A stretch of 63,077 nucleotides of DNA, filler included, from an uncultured Methanosarcinales archaeon (GTDB taxonomy: Archaea > Nanobdellota > Nanobdellia > Woesearchaeales > B54-G15): NCBI GenBank assembly GCA_964519225.1. It is 18 parts of 18 records of this genome, joined end to end, with 100 filler letters (N's around TTAATTAATTAA, not from the genome) between each part and the next. Parts side by side here need not be neighbours in the genome. Positions count along the whole stretch, not along the records: positions 1 to 6,366 come from CAZFJK010000031.1; 17 more parts are not named here. One strand, written 5' to 3'. Both the position numbers and the translations under genes were made by a program. The notes under the pieces are model-generated. The model was not told the DNA's origin and did not search any database. It saw only the letters and a program-made list of their open reading frames with translations. This document shows, one piece after another, positions 1 through 52,174 of the stretch; position 1 is the first letter of the stretch; each line of letters starts with the position of its first letter.

Positions 1-165
1 CTAAAGACAAAACTAATATTTATTACCAGAGATGAATATTCAGTTTTAGAGAGTTTTTAATTGGACTTTCGAGTTTTTGAAACAAGGAAAAAAAACTGAT
101 AGAATAAAAAAAGCTCGGGATTTCTTATAACTGCTAAACAAAAGATTTTTAGTTTACCTAATAAT

Positions 166-239
166 TGGGGAGTCGTCTAGTGGTAGGACATGCGGCTCTG
201 GACCGTATAGCGGGGGTTCGAATCCTCCCTCCCCAGCCA
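166..239 (+). tRNA. tRNA-Gln(CTG), bacterial type with encoded CCA
   Basis: TGGGGAG/CTCCCCA acceptor stem, anticodon arm TGCGG-CT-CTG-GA-CCGTA, GTTCGAATCC T-loop, 3' GCCA. Confidence 0.96.
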
Positions 240-444
240 ACCTGTGCACCACGCAAAGTGACCAACTTTCCTAGTTTTAACACAAACTTGTAGAAAAATA
301 GTATGAGAAGTATTCTTATTAACTACAGGATTTTTTTGTTATAATTAAAGACAGATTAATTTATTTGAAACGGTGTAATGATAATAGGAAAGAAAGTGTA
401 TAGAATTTTGAGGGATTATAGGTTGGGGACCCAGAAGCAAATTC

Positions 445-678
445 TTATAAATCTAGTGTCTTAAATATCTCCGCTACATCACTATGTGTAAAGCCTGGAC
501 AAAGTATAATGGCATCTATCTCCTCCTTTTCATAGATACTTTTTGAAATTTTTATTGCTTCGTCTTGAGTTTTCACAACAACTGTCAAAAGTCTATACTT
601 TCCTGTGTCAATAATACTTTTATGTTTTTCACAATCCGCATCAGGTGCATGTGCTAAAAATAATGCTTTAAAAGCCAT
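445..678 (-). CDS. DUF6506-like small protein, possibly C-terminally truncated
   Basis: AFxALFLAHAPDAD...IILCPGF motif; AGGAG RBS upstream. Confidence 0.6.
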   Translation of the reverse strand: MAFKALFLAHAPDADCEKHKSIIDTGKYRLLTVVVKTQDEAIKISKSIYEKEEIDAIILCPGFTHSDVAEIFKTLDL

Positions 679-787
679 GGTTTACTCCTTTTTATTTTAG
701 ATTTCAACTTTATTATATATATTACCATCTCGTCTAATGTATCTCGCCTGACATATAAGGAAAGTTCGGTAGCAAGCTAATCTTGAT

Positions 788-1831
788 TTATTCTGTTTCA
801 ATCCAACGTTCCTTGAGCATGATCTCAACATCTTTTCTTGTTCCAAAATGGTCAGGTTCTGATGCCCAATGGGAAATAAATACTCCTGTAAAATTATGAT
901 CAGCTAAAATATTTAGTCCTATATCCATTGCTTGTGCTACTATAGCCGCATCCGGAACGGGCTTTGAAAAATGGCTTCCTTTCCAGTAATCCAAACCCAT
1001 AGGAACTGCAAGTTTGCAGAGAATATTATATTTTTCAGAAAGCATATCTATTGTCTCTGCTTCTTTTTCCACATAGTCTGCGTAGTCTTCAAAAGACCTA
1101 ATATCACTTACACCATTGTATTCCTTTCTCGGGAAAAAAGTTAAACCTATACAATCATAATCAGCAAACGAGTTGCACTTATCTAAAATTTTCCATCTCT
1201 CAATATCATAATGCTCTGCAGTGACTATCTTGCCACTATAGACTTTCCTAATCTGGAAGAGGATTGTTTTAAACCATTCCCCCGACACATTTTCTTCCAG
1301 AATAAGATTCATCTCAACACCAGGAGCAAACATCTCAACACTGTTTTTCTCGGCAAAGCGAGCCCATTTTAGAACAGTATCTGTCCAGACTTCTTCGGAA
1401 AGTGACCATTTTCCCATCTGCCAATAATCCCGCGATTCTACATAAGGAGTTAAAAAAATCTTCAATCCTTGATCGTGTGCCATAGTAATGGCTTCCTTTA
1501 AATATTGCTCAGCTTCAGCATCATCTCCAATTAATTTTCCACTGGAAGTGCCATTATAAAAAACTCTTATGAGGAGGTAATTTGCGCCAACATTTTTTGC
1601 TTTTTTGATAAATCTAATGTTACTCTCGTGATTATATATCTCCTCATAGATTCCCGGGTGATAGTATGAAATAGTTCTCCATGTTAAGCCTTGAATTTTA
1701 AACTCCTCTTTGATTTTGGGAACATAAGATTTTTCTTGTTCAATACAAGAATAAATAAAAACAATGCCAATTAATAGTAATCCTAAAACTAAAAACATCA
1801 CTATTTTTCTTTTATGATAATGAGTAGTCAT
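788..1831 (-). CDS. Membrane-anchored TIM-barrel glycoside hydrolase (GH113-like); putative cassette gene
   Basis: N-terminal hydrophobic anchor; AHxxGLKIFLTP and WARFAE..VEMFAPGVEM motifs; IRKVYSGKIV. Confidence 0.7.
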   Translation of the reverse strand: MTTHYHKRKIVMFLVLGLLLIGIVFIYSCIEQEKSYVPKIKEEFKIQGLTWRTISYYHPGIYEEIYNHESNIRFIKKAKNVGANYLLIRVFYNGTSSGKLIGDDAEAEQYLKEAITMAHDQGLKIFLTPYVESRDYWQMGKWSLSEEVWTDTVLKWARFAEKNSVEMFAPGVEMNLILEENVSGEWFKTILFQIRKVYSGKIVTAEHYDIERWKILDKCNSFADYDCIGLTFFPRKEYNGVSDIRSFEDYADYVEKEAETIDMLSEKYNILCKLAVPMGLDYWKGSHFSKPVPDAAIVAQAMDIGLNILADHNFTGVFISHWASEPDHFGTRKDVEIMLKERWIETE

Positions 1832-1886
1832 AAATAGTTATGTAAATTTCTTTAAAAACTCTTCTTTTTGAAAAGGCGAGCCTTCA

Positions 1887-1973
1887 AATTTCTGCTAACT
1901 TAAAATAACCGAAGTACTTCATTTATGCGCAACTCCAGGCGAAGCCTCAAACTTTAACTCCACGCTGTTATCA
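1887..1973 (-). other. attI/attC-like recombination site just downstream of the integrase remnant
   Basis: Minus strand reads TGATAAC...GTACTTCGGTTATTTTAA-GTTAGCAGAAATT; the last 13 nt are identical to the site at 49903-49915. Confidence 0.6.
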
Positions 1974-2097
1974 TTTTCTCTTAAAATCCAAAAAGCTTTT
2001 AACCCATCCAACATCCCGCTGGCCAACACAAGCATAGGTTTCTATTGTTTTCAAACTCTTAAATATATTGTAAATCTACACCACCTTCTAAAAGATC
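1971..2097 (-). pseudogene. Degraded C-terminus of a tyrosine recombinase (integron-like integrase)
   Basis: Manual translation gives DLLEGGVDLQYI*E, then in another frame LKTIETYACVGQRDVGWVKSFLDFKRK*; this matches HLLESGVDLRYIQE...KTTEIYTHV...IRSPID of the 48786-49814 integrase. Confidence 0.75.
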
Positions 2098-2211
2098 TAC
2101 TAATACGCTAATACCCGGATTGTTTGTAATTACTAAATGAAGTGCAGCCAGACGAGATATTGCGAATCCTGAGAGTAGTATGTTTGCTCACCCTCCTCTT
2201 AAACTAACAAA

Positions 2212-2430
2212 TGTTGCATCTGGCCGCAGTTGTTGAACGACGCTCGAACTTTTTTTGAACGGCAATCTGCGCCCTGACGAGTGCAGAACCCGCCCAGCGG
2301 CTCGCCGCCTGACGGCGCCTTCGGCGCGGTATTGGCGAGCGGGCAAAAATCCATTTCCCCCAGACCCCCTCTTCTTTTTGCCCGCTCGCTTTCGGGCTTC
2401 GCCCGATTTTTTCGGCGGGATTTCTCAAAA
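2212..2430. mobile_element. GC-rich, hairpin-rich terminus of a Patescibacteria-type integrative element
   Basis: Abrupt rise in GC; several GC hairpins (e.g. GCGCCTTCGGCGC, TCGGGCTTCGCCCGA); plus-strand stub WPQLLNDARTFFERQSAP*. Confidence 0.45.
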
Positions 2431-2452
2431 ATAATAAGGGTGGTGGGTGGGT

Positions 2453-4813
2453 TTAGATTGTTAATTCAGCAAGTTTGCTATACCTCGCTTTTTCAAAATC
2501 CTTTTGGTCAACGCGCAAGAATGTCCATTTTACTCCCGTGCGCTTGCTTACTTCCTCTGCCCAACGCTTGCCCTGTAAATCTTTTGCCGCCACATGAACA
2601 GCTTCTCGTCCTTTTGTCTCAACAACGACCATACCATCTTTTGCGCGAATAATAAAGTCGGGGATATAACGGCGCAAAAATCCATCTTTGGCGATATAAG
2701 GAATTTTGAGGTTAATCGTTCTTGTTTCGTTTTTAATAAAAGCCTCAACATCGTCTGCTCCATCAAGAAATCTCGCAAATTTCGCCTCAAAGTCATTATC
2801 AACCGGCGTAAAGTTCAAAACAGATTTTTGCACCGCCACCGCAAGTTTTATCCACGGAAACGGCTTAATTTCTAATGCCCGCGCTTTCCTCTCCTCCAGT
2901 TTCGCCTCCTCTGATACAATCGTCAGGTTATTGATAGCGTCAACAAAAACGGAAACTATTGCCCCGCGTACTTTGGGATGGTTCAATTTTTTAAGCGTTT
3001 CAAGATTTGCAATATCAACTTTTTTATCAAAAAGATGCTTTGCAATATATTCTTTGACCTGCGGCGCGACTTTGTCAAAGTGGCCCGGTATCCGCGCAAA
3101 CCGCAAAACCGCGTTGGTAATGCTGGCAATATACATCTGCGGATTGTCCGCGTACGGAAACTCCAGCACTTCTTTGGCTTCCTCTTTTTTCGTCAGCATA
3201 TCCACTTTGCGAAGGGTTACATCCCGCGCCTGCAAAGAATCATACTTGAACAACTTTCCGTCCAAAGCGCTTGCCGAAAGCTTTTCAATTCCTTTTACCG
3301 AGTGCGTCAGTCCGCCGGAAAGCATTGGCACTTCTATATCAAATTTTTCTTTGTCTTTCTCAACCTGAATAATTAGCGGCGGGGTGCATGCTTCTTCAAT
3401 GGGGGTAAACTCAATCTTGACTCCCTGCTCTGCTAAGGCTTCTGCAATTAAATCGTGAAATTGCGGGTGTTCAATAACAATAAGTTCCTCTTTGAGTTCC
3501 TGGTCTTCCGGCCACATTCGGCGGAGTCCTCGCCCCAATGTCTGCTCCGGCAAAATTTTGGCTTTTGCGCTATAGGAGCGCAAAGGAACAACAACTACCA
3601 CGTTGCGCACATCCCAGCCCTCGCGAAGCATCAAAACAGAGACAATGGCGTTGTAGGGATTGTCCGGCGAATCAATCTCGCGGGCGGCTTTGCGCGCTAT
3701 CTCCAAATCCTTTTCCGCAATCTGGTCTTTTTTTCTGCCGGAGTGAATGGTCAAAATTTTGCCGCCAAGTTCGGGGAAAGTCGCCAGATACTCTGCCACG
3801 TCATCCGCCGCCTTGTTATCCTCCGTCATCACAAAAAGCACGGGTTTTTTCTCCGTCTTGGTAAGCGCTTTGCGCATCTTCTTCCATTGATTAACTCCAG
3901 CGTCAATTTGAACGCGATATTTTTCCGACGCCTTTTTACTCTCAATTTCGGGCACATTCTCAAGCTCGGCGATCTTGGGCCGCTTGACAATGTTGTCTTC
4001 AATCGCGCTTCCTAAATTGTANNNNNNNNNNNNNNNNNNNNNNNNNNNNNNNNNNNNNNNNNNNNNNNNNNNNNNNNNNNNNNNNNNNNNNNNNNNNNNN
4101 NNNNNNNNNNNNNNNNNNNNNGGCTTTGGCCCTAAAATATCCTGCACTGGATTTTCTTCTTCTCCGTTTTCCCGCTCAACAAATTTCTGCCAGTTCAAAA
4201 GATAAAGAGTTGCCGGCTTGGTGCTTTCCCGTTCCTCATCAGGTCCAATCACATCAAGCTGAAAATCAGAAATCCACTCTGGGGGAAGAAAAGGAAACTT
4301 TTTGAAAATCGCCCCTTCAAAAAATTCGGGATTCTTTGAATCACCCATCAAGCGGTCGAGCACAATCAAGTTTGGCGCTATAAGCAGAAAATCCTTTGTG
4401 AAATCGTCTCGCTTTTCTTTTGTTGTGTTGAAATACGACCATACAATCGCCATCGCCATTACCATTGTTTTACCCGAACCGGTCGCCATTTTGAAAGCAT
4501 ACTTTGCCCATTTGTCTGCACTCGGATCCACCGGCACTCTGGCGTCAAGCTGTTGCGCGAGCTTGTACAAGCTCCGGGCTTCCAAAACTTCATAGCAATA
4601 AATCAAATGCTCAATCGCTTCTCTCTGCGCCCGCCAAAAAGCAAACAAAGTTCCATCTTTCAATTCATGGTTCTCCAAAAACCACCACTCCAAAAGCCGC
4701 CGCGTCGTTTCGCTTGTTCCTTCTTTGTATCCACCCTCGCGCCACGCGGCGACTGCCTGTTGCAGAGCGCGGACGAGAGGAAGTGCCGATTGTTGTTTAT
4801 TATGACCACTCAT
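2453..4813 (-). CDS. res: Type III restriction enzyme Res subunit (SF2 helicase + PD-(D/E)xK nuclease); spans a 100-N gap
   Basis: KMATGSGKT Walker A, MLREGWDV, EQTLGRGLR, C-terminal YIPDF...VVETKG. Confidence 0.9.
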   Translation of the reverse strand: MSGHNKQQSALPLVRALQQAVAAWREGGYKEGTSETTRRLLEWWFLENHELKDGTLFAFWRAQREAIEHLIYCYEVLEARSLYKLAQQLDARVPVDPSADKWAKYAFKMATGSGKTMVMAMAIVWSYFNTTKEKRDDFTKDFLLIAPNLIVLDRLMGDSKNPEFFEGAIFKKFPFLPPEWISDFQLDVIGPDEERESTKPATLYLLNWQKFVERENGEEENPVQDILGPKXXXXXXXXXXXXXXXXXXXXXXXXXXXXXXXXXXYNLGSAIEDNIVKRPKIAELENVPEIESKKASEKYRVQIDAGVNQWKKMRKALTKTEKKPVLFVMTEDNKAADDVAEYLATFPELGGKILTIHSGRKKDQIAEKDLEIARKAAREIDSPDNPYNAIVSVLMLREGWDVRNVVVVVPLRSYSAKAKILPEQTLGRGLRRMWPEDQELKEELIVIEHPQFHDLIAEALAEQGVKIEFTPIEEACTPPLIIQVEKDKEKFDIEVPMLSGGLTHSVKGIEKLSASALDGKLFKYDSLQARDVTLRKVDMLTKKEEAKEVLEFPYADNPQMYIASITNAVLRFARIPGHFDKVAPQVKEYIAKHLFDKKVDIANLETLKKLNHPKVRGAIVSVFVDAINNLTIVSEEAKLEERKARALEIKPFPWIKLAVAVQKSVLNFTPVDNDFEAKFARFLDGADDVEAFIKNETRTINLKIPYIAKDGFLRRYIPDFIIRAKDGMVVVETKGREAVHVAAKDLQGKRWAEEVSKRTGVKWTFLRVDQKDFEKARYSKLAELTI

Positions 4814-5427
4814 AAATTTAAAGTTTTTACAATAACAAAAGTTTCAAGGACTTTATTCCTTGTGTATCTCCAAAATCGTTTTGAGCGTCGGTAAAATATA
4901 ACCGCTAAAAATATGCTCACCAAAAATAACAGTAATGTGTTTATGTTGTAAGCAAAAAATACGAAATACATCAAAAATAATGATTCTAAAACAAATAAAA
5001 TAAGCCATCCTCTATACAAGCTATAATAGGAGTTAAATGCTAGCACTTGACCAGTTATATCTTTGGCACTAGCAAACATATAACATAAATTCCATAATCT
5101 ACTGTCGTCTTGTTTTTGTAATCCAAAATACTCTTTTGCTTGTTGCAAGATTTCTTTTTGTTTGTCATCAAAATCTTCTTTGTTTTCTGGAACCAAAAAA
5201 CGCAAAAATTTTATCTCGTTTATAAGATTTGCAACTCCCTGTACAAAATGTCCTGCAAAATACGCGACAATGAACCAAATTAAGAAAGTATCTAAACTGA
5301 AAGAAGGGACAGCAACTTGAAAGAAATAAACTGCGTTAAAAACAAGAAGTAACAGGGTAAGTGCGCCTACCATAAGGTAGCCGATTTGGTCATAAACATT
5401 AAATTTTGAGAAAATCTTTTGCTCCAT
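4810..5427 (-). CDS. Four-TM membrane protein of unknown function
   Basis: Two pairs of hydrophobic segments separated by a soluble loop; stop overlaps the res start. Confidence 0.75.
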   Translation of the reverse strand: MEQKIFSKFNVYDQIGYLMVGALTLLLLVFNAVYFFQVAVPSFSLDTFLIWFIVAYFAGHFVQGVANLINEIKFLRFLVPENKEDFDDKQKEILQQAKEYFGLQKQDDSRLWNLCYMFASAKDITGQVLAFNSYYSLYRGWLILFVLESLFLMYFVFFAYNINTLLLFLVSIFLAVIFYRRSKRFWRYTRNKVLETFVIVKTLNL

Positions 5428-5430
5428 AGT

Positions 5431-6252
5431 TTAATAATTTTGATTGATATAAACGGTATAGTTTCCAATCGCCGGAATTTCAATTGTGATTTTACCATCG
5501 TTGCGAGTCGTCAAAACCTTTCTAAGATTGCCGTTAAAGTTTAAACCACTACAATGCTGGGCATAGAGATTATGGTTTTGTGTCTCGTGCATTAACGGTT
5601 TATCAGAAATAATTACTACATGAGGGGTGCAGTAATTGAACACCTCCCGACAATAACCACTTTCTCGTCCATGATGAGAAGCGATTAAAATGTTTGTTCG
5701 CCTCAAACAATTTACAAATGTCTGGTTTGTTAAAAATTCTCTCCACCCAGCGGCTTCAAGGTCTCCTGGAAACATTACACCCACCCCGTTGTAAGCAACA
5801 AAAGTAACAACACTTAGGTTATTTGTATCTTGAAACTTCGTCGGTGAATGATGGAAATAAGCAATTTCCATCCCATAGTTCGGGGATATCGGTGAGCCAG
5901 TGAAAACATTTCGTATCCAGTGAAGAGCTGTTTGTACCGCCTCGTGTACCTCGCCGCTCTCTTCGATCTTTTTACGTTCCACCCAGTCGGGGTTAATATA
6001 GCTGTTGTGCTTAATGCTTACGGGGCGGATATGGGGTTCAAAATTCGCTAAATCAGAAAGATGATCTCGGTCTAGATTGCTCAAAACAATACAGTGAGGT
6101 CTTTGATTGCGCTGTCGCAACCAGTTTGATGGTCGCCAATTTGTAGATGCGTTATGCCCAGCGCCTATCAATATCAAATCGCCGGATGGCGTCTCTATGG
6201 CGCTACATTCACCATGCTCAACGTCAAAAATGTGAATTCTCATGGTATTCAT
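5431..6252 (-). CDS. ComEC/Rec2-like metallo-beta-lactamase-fold hydrolase
   Basis: FDVEHGEC, LSNLDRDH (variant HxHxDH), NNLSVV, FPGDLE, ASHHGR motifs. Confidence 0.85.
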   Translation of the reverse strand: MNTMRIHIFDVEHGECSAIETPSGDLILIGAGHNASTNWRPSNWLRQRNQRPHCIVLSNLDRDHLSDLANFEPHIRPVSIKHNSYINPDWVERKKIEESGEVHEAVQTALHWIRNVFTGSPISPNYGMEIAYFHHSPTKFQDTNNLSVVTFVAYNGVGVMFPGDLEAAGWREFLTNQTFVNCLRRTNILIASHHGRESGYCREVFNYCTPHVVIISDKPLMHETQNHNLYAQHCSGLNFNGNLRKVLTTRNDGKITIEIPAIGNYTVYINQNY

Positions 6253-6366
6253 GTTGATTTATAGTAATCTTTTCTCGATCTTAAAACGTACCAGCCATCG
6301 CTGTAATTCTGAAACTGTGTCCGGAAAACTATTTCTTTGTCGTCCTTTATACGGACTCTCACATTT
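6249..6366 (-). CDS. Partial 3' end of an unknown gene coupled to the MBL hydrolase
   Basis: Open frame NVRVRIKDDKEIVFRTQFQNYSDGWYVLRSRKDYYKST* whose TGA overlaps the next ATG (ATGA). Confidence 0.45.
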
Positions 6367-40656: not shown

Positions 40657-40744
40657 ATATAACAGAGCGTATCTGGCTTCGTGCCTTCGGCACTTCGCCC
40701 AAATCCTGCTTCGCAGGACTTCAGATACGCTCAAACCGTTAGGC
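40657..40744 (+). other. attC-like recombination site
   Basis: ATATAAC ... GAGCGTATCTG/CAGATACGCTC perfect 11-bp stem, two internal TTCG hairpins ... GTTAGGC. Confidence 0.85.
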
Positions 40745-43112: not shown

Positions 43113-43175
43113 GCCTAACAGCGGACATACGGCTACGGTGCTTCGCACCTCCGCCCAAATTCGGCAGAGCCGAAC
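43113..43175 (+). other. attC-like site (truncated by the contig end)
   Basis: GCCTAAC inverse core complementary to GTTAGGC at 40738; same GGCT.CG-hairpin-CGCCCAAAT-hairpin layout as 40657-40744. Confidence 0.8.
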
Positions 43176-43275
43176 NNNNNNNNNNNNNNNNNNNNNNNNN
43201 NNNNNNNNNNNNNNNNNNNTTAATTAATTAANNNNNNNNNNNNNNNNNNNNNNNNNNNNNNNNNNNNNNNNNNNN

Positions 43276-46863: not shown

Positions 46864-46951
46864 GGAAGGATGGCCGAGTGGTTTAAGGCGCACGCTTGGA
46901 GAGCGTGTGTGGGGAAACTCACCGTGGGTTCGAATCCCACTCCTTCCGCCA
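46864..46951 (+). tRNA. tRNA-Ser(GGA), bacterial type with CCA
   Basis: GGAAGGA/TCCTTCC acceptor stem, CACGC-TT-GGA-GA-GCGTG, long variable arm, GCCA. Confidence 0.96.
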
Positions 46952-47460: not shown

Positions 47461-48010
47461 CCTTTTCTTTCTTTCAATCCTATTGCGATTTCGCAAAAAG
47501 CACAATTTGGCGGTGCTTTCTGGACGATGTTTAAACTTTCTTTGAACAAAATCCGCAAGCGGATTTTGGATAATCCCGCCTAACGGTTCGCTTCGCCAAA
47601 AGGCGGAGTAGGCAAAGCCCGCCCCATAGCAATCTTTCGCTTCGCTCAAGATGCTACGGGGTAAACAAAAATTTTTGCTTGCCTCATAGTCAAATGCGAA
47701 GCATTTGTACTTCGGGGCGGGCTTTGCTTCCTTGCTGATCCCAGTAGCAGAGCAAAGCTCACTATGGGGCACGGCGCAAAGAGAGCCGTTTCCCATCCCA
47801 AGCCGCGCTCCGCGCGGCAGGGCAGGCGGGCTATTTCTTTTGATTTAAGGTAAATATGCTTGCCTCACCCAGCCCGTGTGCGGGCAACATTAGGAAACTT
47901 CCTATATTCTTGTTGACCAGAAAAAATAAATAATGTATTATGTTTGTAGTGGTATTCAGTGGATTATAGAAAACAACCTATATTTTAATACTAATATTAT
48001 TATACAAAAT

Positions 48011-48785: not shown

Positions 48786-49814
48786 AAAATCGAAAAAGAT
48801 AATGGGAGAATTAAAGTTTTCTTTCCATACAGTCCAGTATATATTACAAAAATAAAAACTATCAGAGGATATAAGTGGCATTCTGATGGAAAATACTGGA
48901 GCATTCCGTATTCTGAACTTGAAAATCTTCTGTCAGCATTTGATAGAAAAAAGATTGAGGTAGATGCATCTGTCTGGCTTTATGATCTGAGAAAAGAACT
49001 GATGGCAAGAAAGTACAGCAGGAGAACTATAAAGCTTTATCTGCATTACAATGAAGGATTCCTGAAATTCAGCAATAAAACACCTTATCAGGTATCAAAT
49101 GAAGATGTTAGGGATTATCTGTATCATCTGGCAGAAAGGAAGAATGCTTCGGCATCAACTTTAAATATAGCAATAAATGCACTGAAGTTTTACTATGGTG
49201 AGGTTCTAAAGCGAAGATTTGCTTATGGGATAAGGAGACCAAAGAAAGACAAAAAGCTGCCGATTGTTTTGAGTTAGGAGGAAGTTTCAAGGATTTTATC
49301 TTCGTTTAACAACATTAAGCACAGGCTGATTCTGATGCTCATGTATTCTGCCGGTTTGAGAGTTGGAGAAGTTGTAAAGCTTAAAATCGAAGACATTGAT
49401 GTGAAGAGAAAATTGATCAGAATAAGGAGTGGAAAAGGTAGGAAGGATCGATATACAATCTTTTCTGAGATTATGTTAAAAACATTTAGAGAATATGTTG
49501 AGAAGTACAAGCCAGAAAAGTGGCTGTTTCCGGGACAGAGAAAGGATAGACATATAACAACAAGGACTGTGCAGAAGATATTTGATAATGCATGTAGAAA
49601 AGCAGGGATAAGGAAAGAGGCTACCGTTCATTCCTTGAGGCATTTATTCGCAACTCATTTACTCGAAAGTGGAGTTGATCTGAGATACATTCAGGAGTTG
49701 CTTGGTCACAAAAGTTCAAAAACAACAGAGATTTATACTCACGTTGCAATGAAAGATTTGAGAAAAATAAGAAGTCCAATAGATATGATGGTTAAAGGTG
49801 AAAAAGATGAATGA
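48786..49814 (+). pseudogene. Integron-like tyrosine recombinase (HARP-like + SAM-like + catalytic domains) with one in-frame TAG at 49275-49277; 5' partial
   Basis: Continuous frame: FPYSP..IKTIRGYKW..KYWSIP, RKYSRRTIKLY, KLPIVLS*EEV, YSAGLRVGE, GKGRKDR, HSLRH, LGH, IYTHV. Confidence 0.9.
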
Positions 49815-49927
49815 GTTCGTATATACTGCCAAAATTAAAGATAGCATGAACTTCGTATATCCTTCCAAAACCGAACAAAAAGCGAACTTCGTATATGAAC
49901 GAGTTAGCAGAAATTCTGCACGCCACT
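49813..49927 (+). other. attI-like primary recombination site downstream of the integrase
   Basis: TTCGTATAT at 49816, 49852 and 49888 (36-bp period), then GTTAGCA core at 49903. Confidence 0.7.
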
Positions 49928-50859: not shown

Positions 50860-50947
50860 TGCTAACAAGCGGGTATCAGGCTTTGTTTTATCTGCCCAAA
50901 TTCCTCGCTATGCTCGGAACTTCGGATACCCTCAAAAAAATCATAAC
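50860..50947 (+). other. attC-like site with degenerate core
   Basis: TGCTAAC, GGGTATC/GATACCC stem, GCCCAAATTCC..GGAACTTC, ends ATCATAAC in place of GTTATAA; a next ORF starts at 50967. Confidence 0.7.
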
Positions 50948-51108: not shown

Positions 51109-51752
51109 TTCTTACTTTCTTACTCCAGTAAAGCAGATCAACGATGAGGGGTGTTATTTTGCTTTGAAATTCTTCTACGAAAAAGTGCTCAACGAAAAAT
51201 TTGATGAAAAGCTACCATTGGCTAAGAAGAGTTTAAAACACCTTTGGTATTAAGCAGAGAAAGAAATTAACAAAATGATGGAAGTAACACAAACATAAAG
51301 CACAAACTTGTTTTGATGTTTCTTTACTATGCTGGTCTCCGCTTAGATGAAGTTAGAAATCTGAAATGGCAAGACATAGACTTTGATAGAGGTATTATTC
51401 ATGCTAAAACGGCTAAAGGGGAAAAGGAAAGAGTTGTGTTCCTACATTCCAAATTAAAAGAAATGCTGGAAATCTATGATGTTAATAAGCAAGGTTTGGT
51501 TTTCATATCACAAAGGGGTAGAAAATACAACAAAAGAACAATTCAGCAAATAGCGAAGAATGCAGCAAGAAAAGCGGGAATAAAAAAGAAGGTTACTCCT
51601 CACACTTTAAGGCATAGCTTTGCAACACATTTGCTGGAGGCAGGGGCGGATATAAGATATATTCAGCAATTACTGGGACATAAAAGCTGAGAACAACCCA
51701 AATCTATACACATGCAAATAAAGACATAAAGAAGCTTGCCAATTTGCTTTGA
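51109..51752 (+). pseudogene. Second tyrosine recombinase of the same family, multiply frameshifted
   Basis: FALKFFY, YYAGLR..E, AKGEKER, TPHTLRHSFATHLLEAGADIRYIQQLLGH, TTQIYTH in a shifted frame. Confidence 0.85.
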
Positions 51753-52079: not shown

Positions 52080-52174
52080 GTATAACGTTCTGCGGATAAA
52101 AGAAGTTACCCAAGGCAATTTGGGTCAAAGCGAGCAAAAAGCGAAGTTTTGCCTCATAACCGGCCTTGGTAAGC
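52080..52174 (-). other. Degenerate attC-like site
   Basis: Minus strand: GCTTACC ... GACCCAAATTGCC..GGTAACTTCTTTTATCCGCAGAAC-GTTATAC, immediately after the stop of the upstream gene. Confidence 0.6.

Follow-up and report, generated by a model that had tools for sequence, protein, structure and literature searches.

What is left of an integrase gene in an apparently intergenic stretch, beside a gene for a glycoside hydrolase and close to a tRNA-Gln gene of bacterial type, when the assembly that holds them is archaeal? This question is raised by contig C31, which occupies positions 1-6366 of the window, i.e., of the whole 63,077-nucleotide (nt) stretch of DNA analysed here. The window consists of 19 short contigs (C31 to C49) of one 53-contig, 869-kb assembly, separated by linkers of the form N44-TTAATTAATTAA-N44; the integrase with which C31 was compared is encoded by another of these contigs, C43 (48784-51008). 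The assembly (97% completeness, 1.6% contamination) is archaeal: full-length archaeal small-subunit and large-subunit rRNA genes lie on its contig C6. Results of our analysis indicate that the minus strand of the region 452-2094 is very likely a dead, partly deleted integron-like platform, that is, a decayed copy of the same integrase-site-cassette arrangement as that of C43, as the preliminary description of this DNA had supposed.

The integrase fossil and the site behind it

The minus-strand sequence 1974-2094 appears, from its alignments, to be the end (the last ~40 codons, with a frameshift) of a gene for a tyrosine recombinase from the family to which the product of the C43 gene at 48786 belongs. 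The C43 protein matches PF00589 with 158.9 bits, which identifies it as a tyrosine recombinase, and the fossil retains only its very end. A tblastn search of the whole window with this protein, the comparison to which the preliminary description had pointed, gave two linked, colinear minus-strand matches in different frames on 2094-1983 (joint E 0.022): residues 292-305 of the query on 2094-2053, with 10 of 14 positions identical, and residues 309-334 on 2060-1983, with 38% of 26 identical. The search also recovered the C43 gene and, on contig C44, a broken copy (51235-51687, 50% identity). In a search with a profile built from 58 of 80 family proteins, namely those of at least 320 aa, the two fossil pieces ranked 6th and 7th of 2945 six-frame fragments of the window and were the top matches outside the two other integrase genes. 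Their E-values were 0.39 and 0.42, and they are adjacent and colinear, covering profile positions 314-325 and then 332-356. The second piece reads ETYACVGQRDVGWVKSFLDFKRK, and the tail of the fossil, ETYACVGQRDVGWVKSFLD, agrees with the family-specific motif EIYTHVSxKDIGxIKSPLD. The tblastn pair, the profile ranks and the tail motif thus bear out the decayed integrase C-terminus that had been read here.

The damage to the fossil comprises an in-frame TAA at 2059-2061, where the relatives carry glutamine, and a 17-nt deletion with a frameshift at about 2043-2058; its stop codon is the TGA at 1971-1973. Upstream, the family profile found nothing recognisable of the first ~290 codons. At the nucleotide level, the comparison of the C43 3' end with C31 yielded only a 14-mer (E 0.025) and weak pieces, and because the similarity of the two loci is otherwise weak, the fossil is not a recent copy or duplicate of the C43 gene.

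The fossil stop codon had been described as abutting the recombination site, which proved incorrect, as 71 nt lie between the stop and the GTT; in the relatives the corresponding distance is 63-143 nt. The site comprises the palindrome halves ATAAATGAAGT and ACTTCGGTTAT (1905-1926), the spacer TTTAA (1900-1904), and the crossover triplet G/TT (1897-1899; here and below the slash marks the predicted crossover), and this layout is that of the last palindrome, spacer, and GTTA downstream of the family integrases. The 44 nt between the stop and the palindrome (1927-1970) contain no recognisable motif. Judged by its sequence, this part may derive from either an attI or an attC.

The 13-mer GTTAGCAGAAATT is present at 1887-1899 (minus strand) and at 49903-49915 (plus strand), and these are its only two exact copies in the 869-kb assembly. 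The identity of the two sites reported in the preliminary description is therefore real (it covers 14 nt, and a further 18 nt align loosely), but the 13-mer does not mark the platform, since it is found at the 5' end of cassettes, which start with TTAGCAGAAATT. Homologues of the GH113-like gene with GTT boundaries, which had been proposed as informative, exist among the homologous loci, namely, one archaeal genome contig (L008) and five metagenome contigs (L089-L093). The blastn homology to L089 corresponds to 756-1899 of the window and so begins at the GTT, and the L089 leader TTGGCAGAAATTCGAGG... matches TTAGCAGAAATTTGAAGG... of the window despite a different preceding sequence, which means that it is the cassette that brings along the letters following the G. 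The GH113-like cassette accordingly begins with GTTGGCAGAAATT behind the attC of another cassette in L089 and with GTTAGCAGAAAC in L090. On C43 it is a radical-SAM cassette, with an attC whose R'' reads TCTGCTAAC, that begins with the shared 13-mer, as follows from the travelling of these letters. By these comparisons, the 13-mer appears to belong to the cassettes (as their R' box) and not to the platform (attI).

Support for the position of the break comes from copies of the site in other surroundings. An exact 25-mer of the site, lying inside 41 nt with two changes, is present in a bacterial single-cell genome (L107), where different DNA follows GTTAG and a large helicase gene begins 34 nt further on. 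Among metagenome runs, for which assembled contigs only were used (X4 and X5 from study P2, X6 from study P3, and X1), contigs carrying the site but other DNA from 1896 on were found twice in X4, three times in X6, and once in X1. These contigs have only about 1896-1928 in common, both flanks being different, and X6 has, in addition, three loose ends that depart from the window sequence at 1928. The alternative flanks put the recombination break exactly where the integron model has it. Together with the position of the site behind the integrase gene and the start of homology at GTT, the flanks at 1896 are what would be expected of an attI adjacent to its integrase gene, with insertion at G/TT.

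Stranded cassettes and the integrity of the locus

The GH113-like gene follows the integrase fossil co-directionally, as had been stated. Its product matches PF22612 (41.6 bits, cut-off 27, E 1.3e-10), the match spanning only positions 55-179 of the 289 of the profile, and it is 71-84% identical over long matches to homologues in L008 and L089-L092; L093 has a 43-residue fragment with 91% identity. In L089 the gene lies between two attCs, at 1186-1266 (E 5.7e-8) and 2458-2542 (E 1.4e-8), with a third attC further upstream, and in L092 it is followed by an intact attC (695-780). A conserved outer module, corresponding to 756-774 of the window (the GATTAGCTTGCTACCGAACTTTCC region), precedes the attC in both L089 and L092. 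The R''-L''...L' core, about 85 nt in the relatives, is missing from C31, where homology to L089 ends at 756 and that to L092 at 759. An eroded site had been proposed at 732-774; ATTAGAC (732-738) is indeed a remnant of R', but the attC core has been deleted, and TGCTACC (768-774), the candidate R'' box, was rejected, being part of the conserved outer module at the 3' end of the cassette.

The second stranded cassette spans 737 down to a break at 452, inside its gene, which encodes a DUF6506 protein (PF20116, 64.9 bits, profile positions 2-72 of 96). Over 452-830 the L093 sequence shows 98% identity; beyond this it contains the missing part of the gene, followed by an intact attC (613-694 of L093, E 3.4e-8). 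At the junction of the two cassettes L093 reads ATTAGGC, the TTAGGC of which is complementary to the R'' GCCTAAC of this cassette's own attC; in run X6, position 733 is C on the plus strand (G on the minus strand), which likewise gives ATTAGGC. Beyond 452, unrelated DNA leads to the tRNA-Gln gene. One run has the deletion of the L093 type, 489 nt within the GH113 gene.

The arrangement is not an assembly artefact, since a 1478-nt contig of run X4, from another study, bridges 638-2115 with 11 differences. Moreover, a contig of X5 covers 1456-2135, X6 contains a more divergent copy over 1827-2223, the junction at 452 is bridged by contigs from two studies, independent contigs bridge 358-942, and a contig from the possible source run covers 1982-2519.

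Some searches were less informative. The scan for promoters and terminators revealed no clear promoter of the GH113-like gene (12 promoter-like sites vs. 7.5 +/- 2.8 expected), and none of the inverted repeats listed for C31 frames the cassette. The motif GAACT[CT]TTCGC occurs three times in the genome and the loci, twice after cassette open reading frames (ORFs), which is too few to weigh. The attC covariance model R1, described below, had no match in L008 or in L107. The coordinates of the features are collected in Table 1.

Table 1. Recombination-related features of contigs C31, C40, and C43, in window coordinates
Feature	Position	Strand	Remarks
tRNA-Gln(CTG), bacterial type (C31)	166..239	+	ARAGORN; Rfam tRNA 59.2 bits; 3' end faces remnant
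DUF6506 gene, 3'-truncated (C31)	445..678	-	77 aa vs. 105 aa in L093
R' box at GH113/DUF6506 cassette junction (C31)	732..738	-	A/TTAGAC, first G mutated to A
GH113-like cassette (C31)	738-1898	-	First cassette
Stump of 3' recombination site of GH113 cassette (C31)	739..774	-	Outer module kept, attC core missing
GH113-like glycoside hydrolase ORF (C31)	788..1831	-	347 aa, intact, hydrophobic N-terminal segment; cargo of first cassette
Cassette leader (C31)	1832..1898	-	Starts TTAGCAGAAATT; R' remainder and extension
attI-type simple site (C31)	1897..1926	-	Imperfect 22-bp palindrome, spacer, G/TT
Decayed left part of site, stop to palindrome (C31)	1927..1970	-	Position fits attI of relatives
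Integrase C-terminus fossil (C31)	1971..2094	-	LLEGGVDLQYI, TAA, frameshift, ETYACVGQRDVGWVKSFLDFKRK, TGA
Only intact attC in assembly (C40)	40657..40744	+	Folds at -21.4 kcal/mol, z -5.1
Near-full-length family integrase (C43)	48786..49814	+	N-terminus cut by contig end; in-frame TAG 49275-49277
attI of C43	49815..49915	+	Three ACTTCGTATAT half-sites 36 nt apart, then GAACGA, G/TTAGCAGAAATT
Decayed attC of radical-SAM cassette (C43)	50861..50941	+	R1 34.3 bits, E 6.4e-6; R' lost

The live family and the explanation of the remnant

A scan of one genome per species yielded 450 relatives of the catalytic half of the C43 integrase among 543 candidate stretches, and the family figures given here rest on the best 80 of these 450 (57-83% identity to the C43 integrase). 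The records label 21 of the 80 loci as archaeal and 59 as bacterial; they include a 1.9-Mb chromosome of Methanoperedenaceae, a contig of 3.7 Mb from Spirochaetota, and others, several hundred kb long, from Aminicenantes, Ignavibacteriota, and Bacteroidota. Downstream of the stop codons of the family integrases lie full palindromes (one or two), then a CCAAAWTGG-like centre, a last palindrome, a spacer of 5-6 nt, and GTTRRRY. The motif AAC[AG]AGTT[AG] is present 63-143 nt after the stop in 19 of the 71 loci with at least 120 nt of downstream sequence and in none of 71 control stretches inside the gene. In 24 of the 80 loci the contig breaks off before the stop or fewer than 300 nt beyond it, as is expected from repeated or variable cassettes in assemblies. 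A search for the half-site GAACTTCGTATAT with up to three mismatches gave 29 matches vs. 19.7 expected and is uninformative outside C43.

The IntI-specific domain is absent from the C43 integrase, which has 18 residues where IntI4 of Vibrio cholerae (2a3v) has 60; the alignment with IntI4 splits in two parts, whereas archaeal XerA structures align without large gaps. The integron integrase model TIGR02249 scores 236 bits, below its cut-off of 265, and in two stretches. The NF040815 model (XerA / 'integron integrase') scores 253.7 bits, above its cut-off of 220, but this model does not separate the members from the two domains, because bacterial members of the family pass it as well (227 and 224 bits). 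The motifs GLR and HxLRH are 92 aa apart in 69 of the 80 members, 91 in three, 95 in one, and 67 in one, six being unscored. As the alignment reaches back into the first 13 residues of the C43 protein in 51 of the 80 loci, the extra N-terminal segment of ~60 aa is a trait of the family. This conserved segment (48786-48980 and the family loci) has the pattern IKVxFPY...W..P and no Pfam match, and it is a candidate for binding the repeated attI palindromes; the best Protein Atlas score of its 62 N-terminal residues, 0.84, is to clusters without names and is a lead at most. At the position of the single in-frame TAG of the otherwise well-preserved C43 gene, XerA and IntI4 have E and R, respectively, and the gene may be a young pseudogene, a strain variant, or the product of a sequencing error. 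Two integrase-bearing contigs of one Altiarchaeales assembly differ in coverage, about 100x (L020) vs. about 2500x (L023), and the latter contig may be a multi-copy or extrachromosomal element.

The sites further downstream in the family loci are built like integron attCs, with R'' (..TAAC), L'', a CCAAAT-containing variable region, L', five bases left unpaired, and R' (GTTA..). In an alignment of 14 such attC sites, 10 of 12 L-stem pairs show compensatory changes, and the covariance model R1 was built from this alignment. It gave 31 matches at E<=0.01, of which 13 are training sequences, in 19 of 81 loci; the remnant has only stumps of such attC-bounded cassettes. Every R1 match lies downstream of the integrase and on the same strand, about 3 kb upstream having been searched too in most loci. 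At least four different L stems occur in the L061 array, all of them still complementary, which argues that the folded shape rather than the sequence would be recognised, as in integrons.

Within the assembly, C40 (40119-43176) is a small array in which an ORF, the intact attC, and two further ORFs precede a second attC (43133-43176, E 0.05), which the end of the contig truncates. A third, frameshifted integrase copy on the plus strand of C44 (51109-52174) faces a minus-strand, attC-like site (52080-52174, E 0.0025) that lies behind a 240-aa ORF; this convergent arrangement does not fit the layout of the family.

Based on these comparisons, the platform, when alive, would have comprised a tyrosine recombinase of an Xer-like family, with the extra ~60-aa N-terminal segment and without the IntI-specific domain; immediately behind the recombinase gene, and in the same direction, an attI with integrase-binding palindromes and a G/TT crossover; and one-gene cassettes in an array, each of them closed by a folded attC (R''-L''...L'-R'). 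Such cassettes would be taken up through recombination of attI with the attC of a circular cassette, with the cut between G and TT, so that each cassette would start with the TTRRRY of its own attC. Decay has removed the first ~290 codons of the recombinase and added a stop and a frameshift, reduced the attI to its last palindrome and the GTT, deleted the attC core of the GH113-like cassette, cut the DUF6506 cassette within its gene, and replaced all that lay beyond it by the flank of a bacterial-type tRNA-Gln gene. The two cassette genes would now be fixed in place, and nothing in the remnant would be expected to recombine by itself. The remnant can thus be viewed as a natural record of how such a platform worked and of its stepwise decay (integrase truncated, attC core deleted, cassette cut), and its comparison with live relatives would place the crossover at G/TT and reveal which letters travel with the cassette.

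Several observations weigh against this explanation. Each of the tblastn, profile, and 14-mer E-values of the integrase stump is weak alone, and the stump is cut short at about 2100. No intact integrase of the family is present in the assembly, that of C43 having a stop and that of C44 being broken, and in L107 the site is preceded by a small helix-turn-helix gene, not by an integrase, within the 350 nt available. The worn sites fold no better than shuffled sequences (700-790, z 0.23; 1880-1985, z 0.42) and are without a match to R1, both when the whole window was searched unfiltered and when 200-2500 was searched alone (2.3 kb). Furthermore, the likeness of the 44 nt by the stop to an attC start (TAACAGCG, CTTCGCC) is as great as that to an attI. 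It is conceivable, though unlikely, that the integrase piece lay inside an array, its gene having been cut by cassette insertion or array recombination, and that the 71-nt stretch is a worn attC. Such a reading is favoured by the overlap of TAACAGCG with the stop codon, by the occurrence of CTTCGCC, CATAAAT, and ACTTC in attC order, by the MAFFT grouping of the stretch with the attC of L089, and by the minus-strand sequence 2199-2223, CAGATGCAACATTT-GTTAGTT followed by GGAGG, which resembles an attC end and a cassette start; the right half of the site is also found away from any visible integrase (L107 and the metagenome contigs). However, the stretch has neither a match to the attC model nor L''/L' complementarity, a contiguous palindrome directly before a spacer and GTT is the layout of an attI and not of an attC, and the spacing to the natural stop agrees with an attI.

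The proximity of tRNA genes brings to mind the integrase of an ordinary genomic island or prophage that targeted a tRNA gene and had nothing to do with cassette capture: the remnant ends near the 3' end of tRNA-Gln, L092 has a tRNA-Gln gene 350 nt beyond its array, and one X4 contig departs at 2223, continuing into a tRNA-like sequence (T-arm and acceptor end). Such an origin is nevertheless highly improbable, as the tail motif of the fossil is that of the cassette-associated family, the integrase lies on the far side from the tRNA gene, and the G/TT cassette boundaries and the attCs of the relatives would have no place in it. Even less credence can be given to a chance resemblance to an integrase or a chimeric assembly of the contig; single E-values near or above 0.02 and the 100-N gap inside C31 (4022-4121) might evoke it, but two adjacent colinear matches, the expected offset of a unique 13-mer, a motif specific to the family, the bridging contigs of the other studies, and the contig of the possible source run speak against it. 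We thus retain the explanation of the locus as a dead, partly deleted platform of the integron-like type.

With integrons, this kind of platform shares a tyrosine recombinase gene by an attI with a G/TT crossover, one-gene cassettes that each close with an imperfect palindrome R''(..TAAC)-L''...L'-R'(GTTA..), cassettes that start with the remainder of their own R', and cargo such as restriction, radical-SAM, and secreted enzymes. It differs in that the family recombinase lacks the ~35-40 residues near patch III that define IntI and has the extra N-terminal segment, in that the R-L loop of the family attC is strongly asymmetric (1-3 nt vs. 5 nt), and in that the family attI has two or three full palindromes; the C31 copy, besides, is dead. 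In layout, then, the remnant would behave like an integron, while a defining element of integrons, the IntI domain, is what its family lacks. Archaeal integrons have been published, with putative attIs immediately downstream of intI, and the six archaeal IntIs are stated there to possess the IntI domain (Ghaly et al. 2022, PMC9668308). A group with an 'inverted integrase', in which intI is co-directional with the cassettes, has been described along with CALINs, i.e., attC clusters without an integrase, an integrase pseudogene being near 15 of 279 of them (Cury et al. 2016, PMC4889954). The C31 remnant is similar to CALINs in having cassettes stranded without a working integrase and a recognisable integrase pseudogene nearby, but its attCs are gone (model R1), at least two attCs being needed for a CALIN. 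As regards the Xer/dif system, archaeal XerA (PDB 5hxy, 4a8e) is the best continuous match to the C43 integrase (XerA chains, E 1e-47). What sets the family apart from it is the additional N-terminal segment, a site with several palindromes right behind the gene, and the attC arrays; in this assembly, moreover, three decayed family copies lie on contigs of at most 6.4 kb beside cassettes, and a separate 282-aa gene of XerA type lies on the 26-kb archaeal contig C12. The context of the decayed copies argues against their being a single housekeeping XerA that works at one dif site by the replication terminus.

In the literature searched, no description of a domain-less integrase with attC arrays was found. 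It is possible, and we put it forward tentatively, that the family represents a large integron-like class of uncultivated anaerobic bacteria and archaea, with an Xer-like recombinase that has the N-terminal segment and is always co-directional with its attI and array, with a GH113 cassette that crosses domains, and with a possible role in serving the 'integrase-less' archaeal attC clusters. The remnant adds one locus, and a cassette found in both domains, to the evidence for a widespread family without the IntI domain that would run integron-type arrays. If the proposal holds at the bench, the rule that the IntI domain is required for attC recombination will need revision, and surveys that call arrays 'integrase-less' will need re-reading.

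The host of the contig and the cross-domain cassette

The bacterial look of C31, pointed out in the preliminary description, is confirmed by its tRNA-Gln gene, which has U1-A72, G73, and an encoded CCA, and whose pattern of D-arm and anticodon stem was found in the genomes of 12 species, 12 of 12 bacterial and none archaeal; the tRNA-Gln of an archaeon of the same order is of the A1-U72 type. A sigma-70-like promoter (77-105, 10 of 12 positions) lies 60 nt upstream of the gene. Because a tRNA-Gln of bacterial type sits in an archaeal bin, C31 is likely a bacterial contig mis-binned into the archaeal assembly. A 2.9-kb contig of run X4 extends this flank past window position 1. The bin has no other tRNA-Gln gene, but this gap says nothing on the host, since tRNA-Asp and tRNA-Glu are missing too. 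In 40 related archaeal genomes, the tRNA-Gln stretch gave 77-80% or short T-arm matches in seven, and in the only genome of the same genus not even partial matches, neither of which demonstrates absence. An Rfam scan of 1-6366 at E<=1 returned nothing but the tRNA.

The preliminary description had also suggested a distribution across domains. The window itself cannot prove such a spread, because all integron-related pieces of the assembly are on contigs of at most 6.4 kb, and both contigs compared are in one archaeal bin; the suggestion is nonetheless supported by public records, which show the integrase family and the GH113 cassette beside markers of both domains. In L092, the GH113 cassette and its attC are accompanied by a bacterial-type tRNA-Gln(TTG) gene in the same relative orientation and by dnaX (511 bits), and the neighbours of the GH113 gene in L008 include an archease gene (at 250 nt) and that of archaeal EF-2 (at 2.6 kb). 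The identity of the GH113-like proteins beside these bacterial and archaeal markers is 74-84%. Cross-domain spread of integrons in general is already published (Ghaly et al. 2022, PMC9668308); the shared cassette, if the proposal made above is true, would be a tangible trace of cassettes having moved between domains through this particular system. The case is also a warning that short cassette-bearing contigs in metagenome bins can stem from a domain other than that of the bin.

The far end of the array is 200-350 nt from the 3' end of an opposite-strand tRNA-Gln gene of bacterial type both in the window (239-452) and in L092 (781-1130), which may reflect chance or a preferred location. Contig C42 has a second tRNA-Ser(GGA) gene with an encoded CCA (46864-46951), duplicating the one on the large contig C2, as well as an XRE-type helix-turn-helix gene, a DNA methylase gene, and a 300-nt G+C-rich stretch (47540-47880), and it is probably another non-archaeal contig in the bin.

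Upstream of the fossil, the region 2206-2452 is G+C-rich and includes an inverted repeat of 15 bp without mismatches (2335-2349 / 2375-2389). This region occurs once in the assembly, yet piles up in metagenome contigs (depth 288 in run X5). The structure of 2195-2455 is only mild (folding z -2.0), and no other copy of the G+C-rich stretches 2100-2460 and 47540-47900 was found in the assembly or the loci. The X4 contig that departs at 2223 suggests that, in the X4 population, tRNA genes may adjoin the remnant with their 3' ends on both sides, the ResIII gene being absent. In the window, 2453-6252 encodes, on the strand of the fossil, a 786-aa helicase of ResIII type (nuclease-like in its C-terminal region, and interrupted by the 100-N gap), a 205-aa membrane protein, and a protein of the metallo-beta-lactamase fold, and this region may be a defence-type island.

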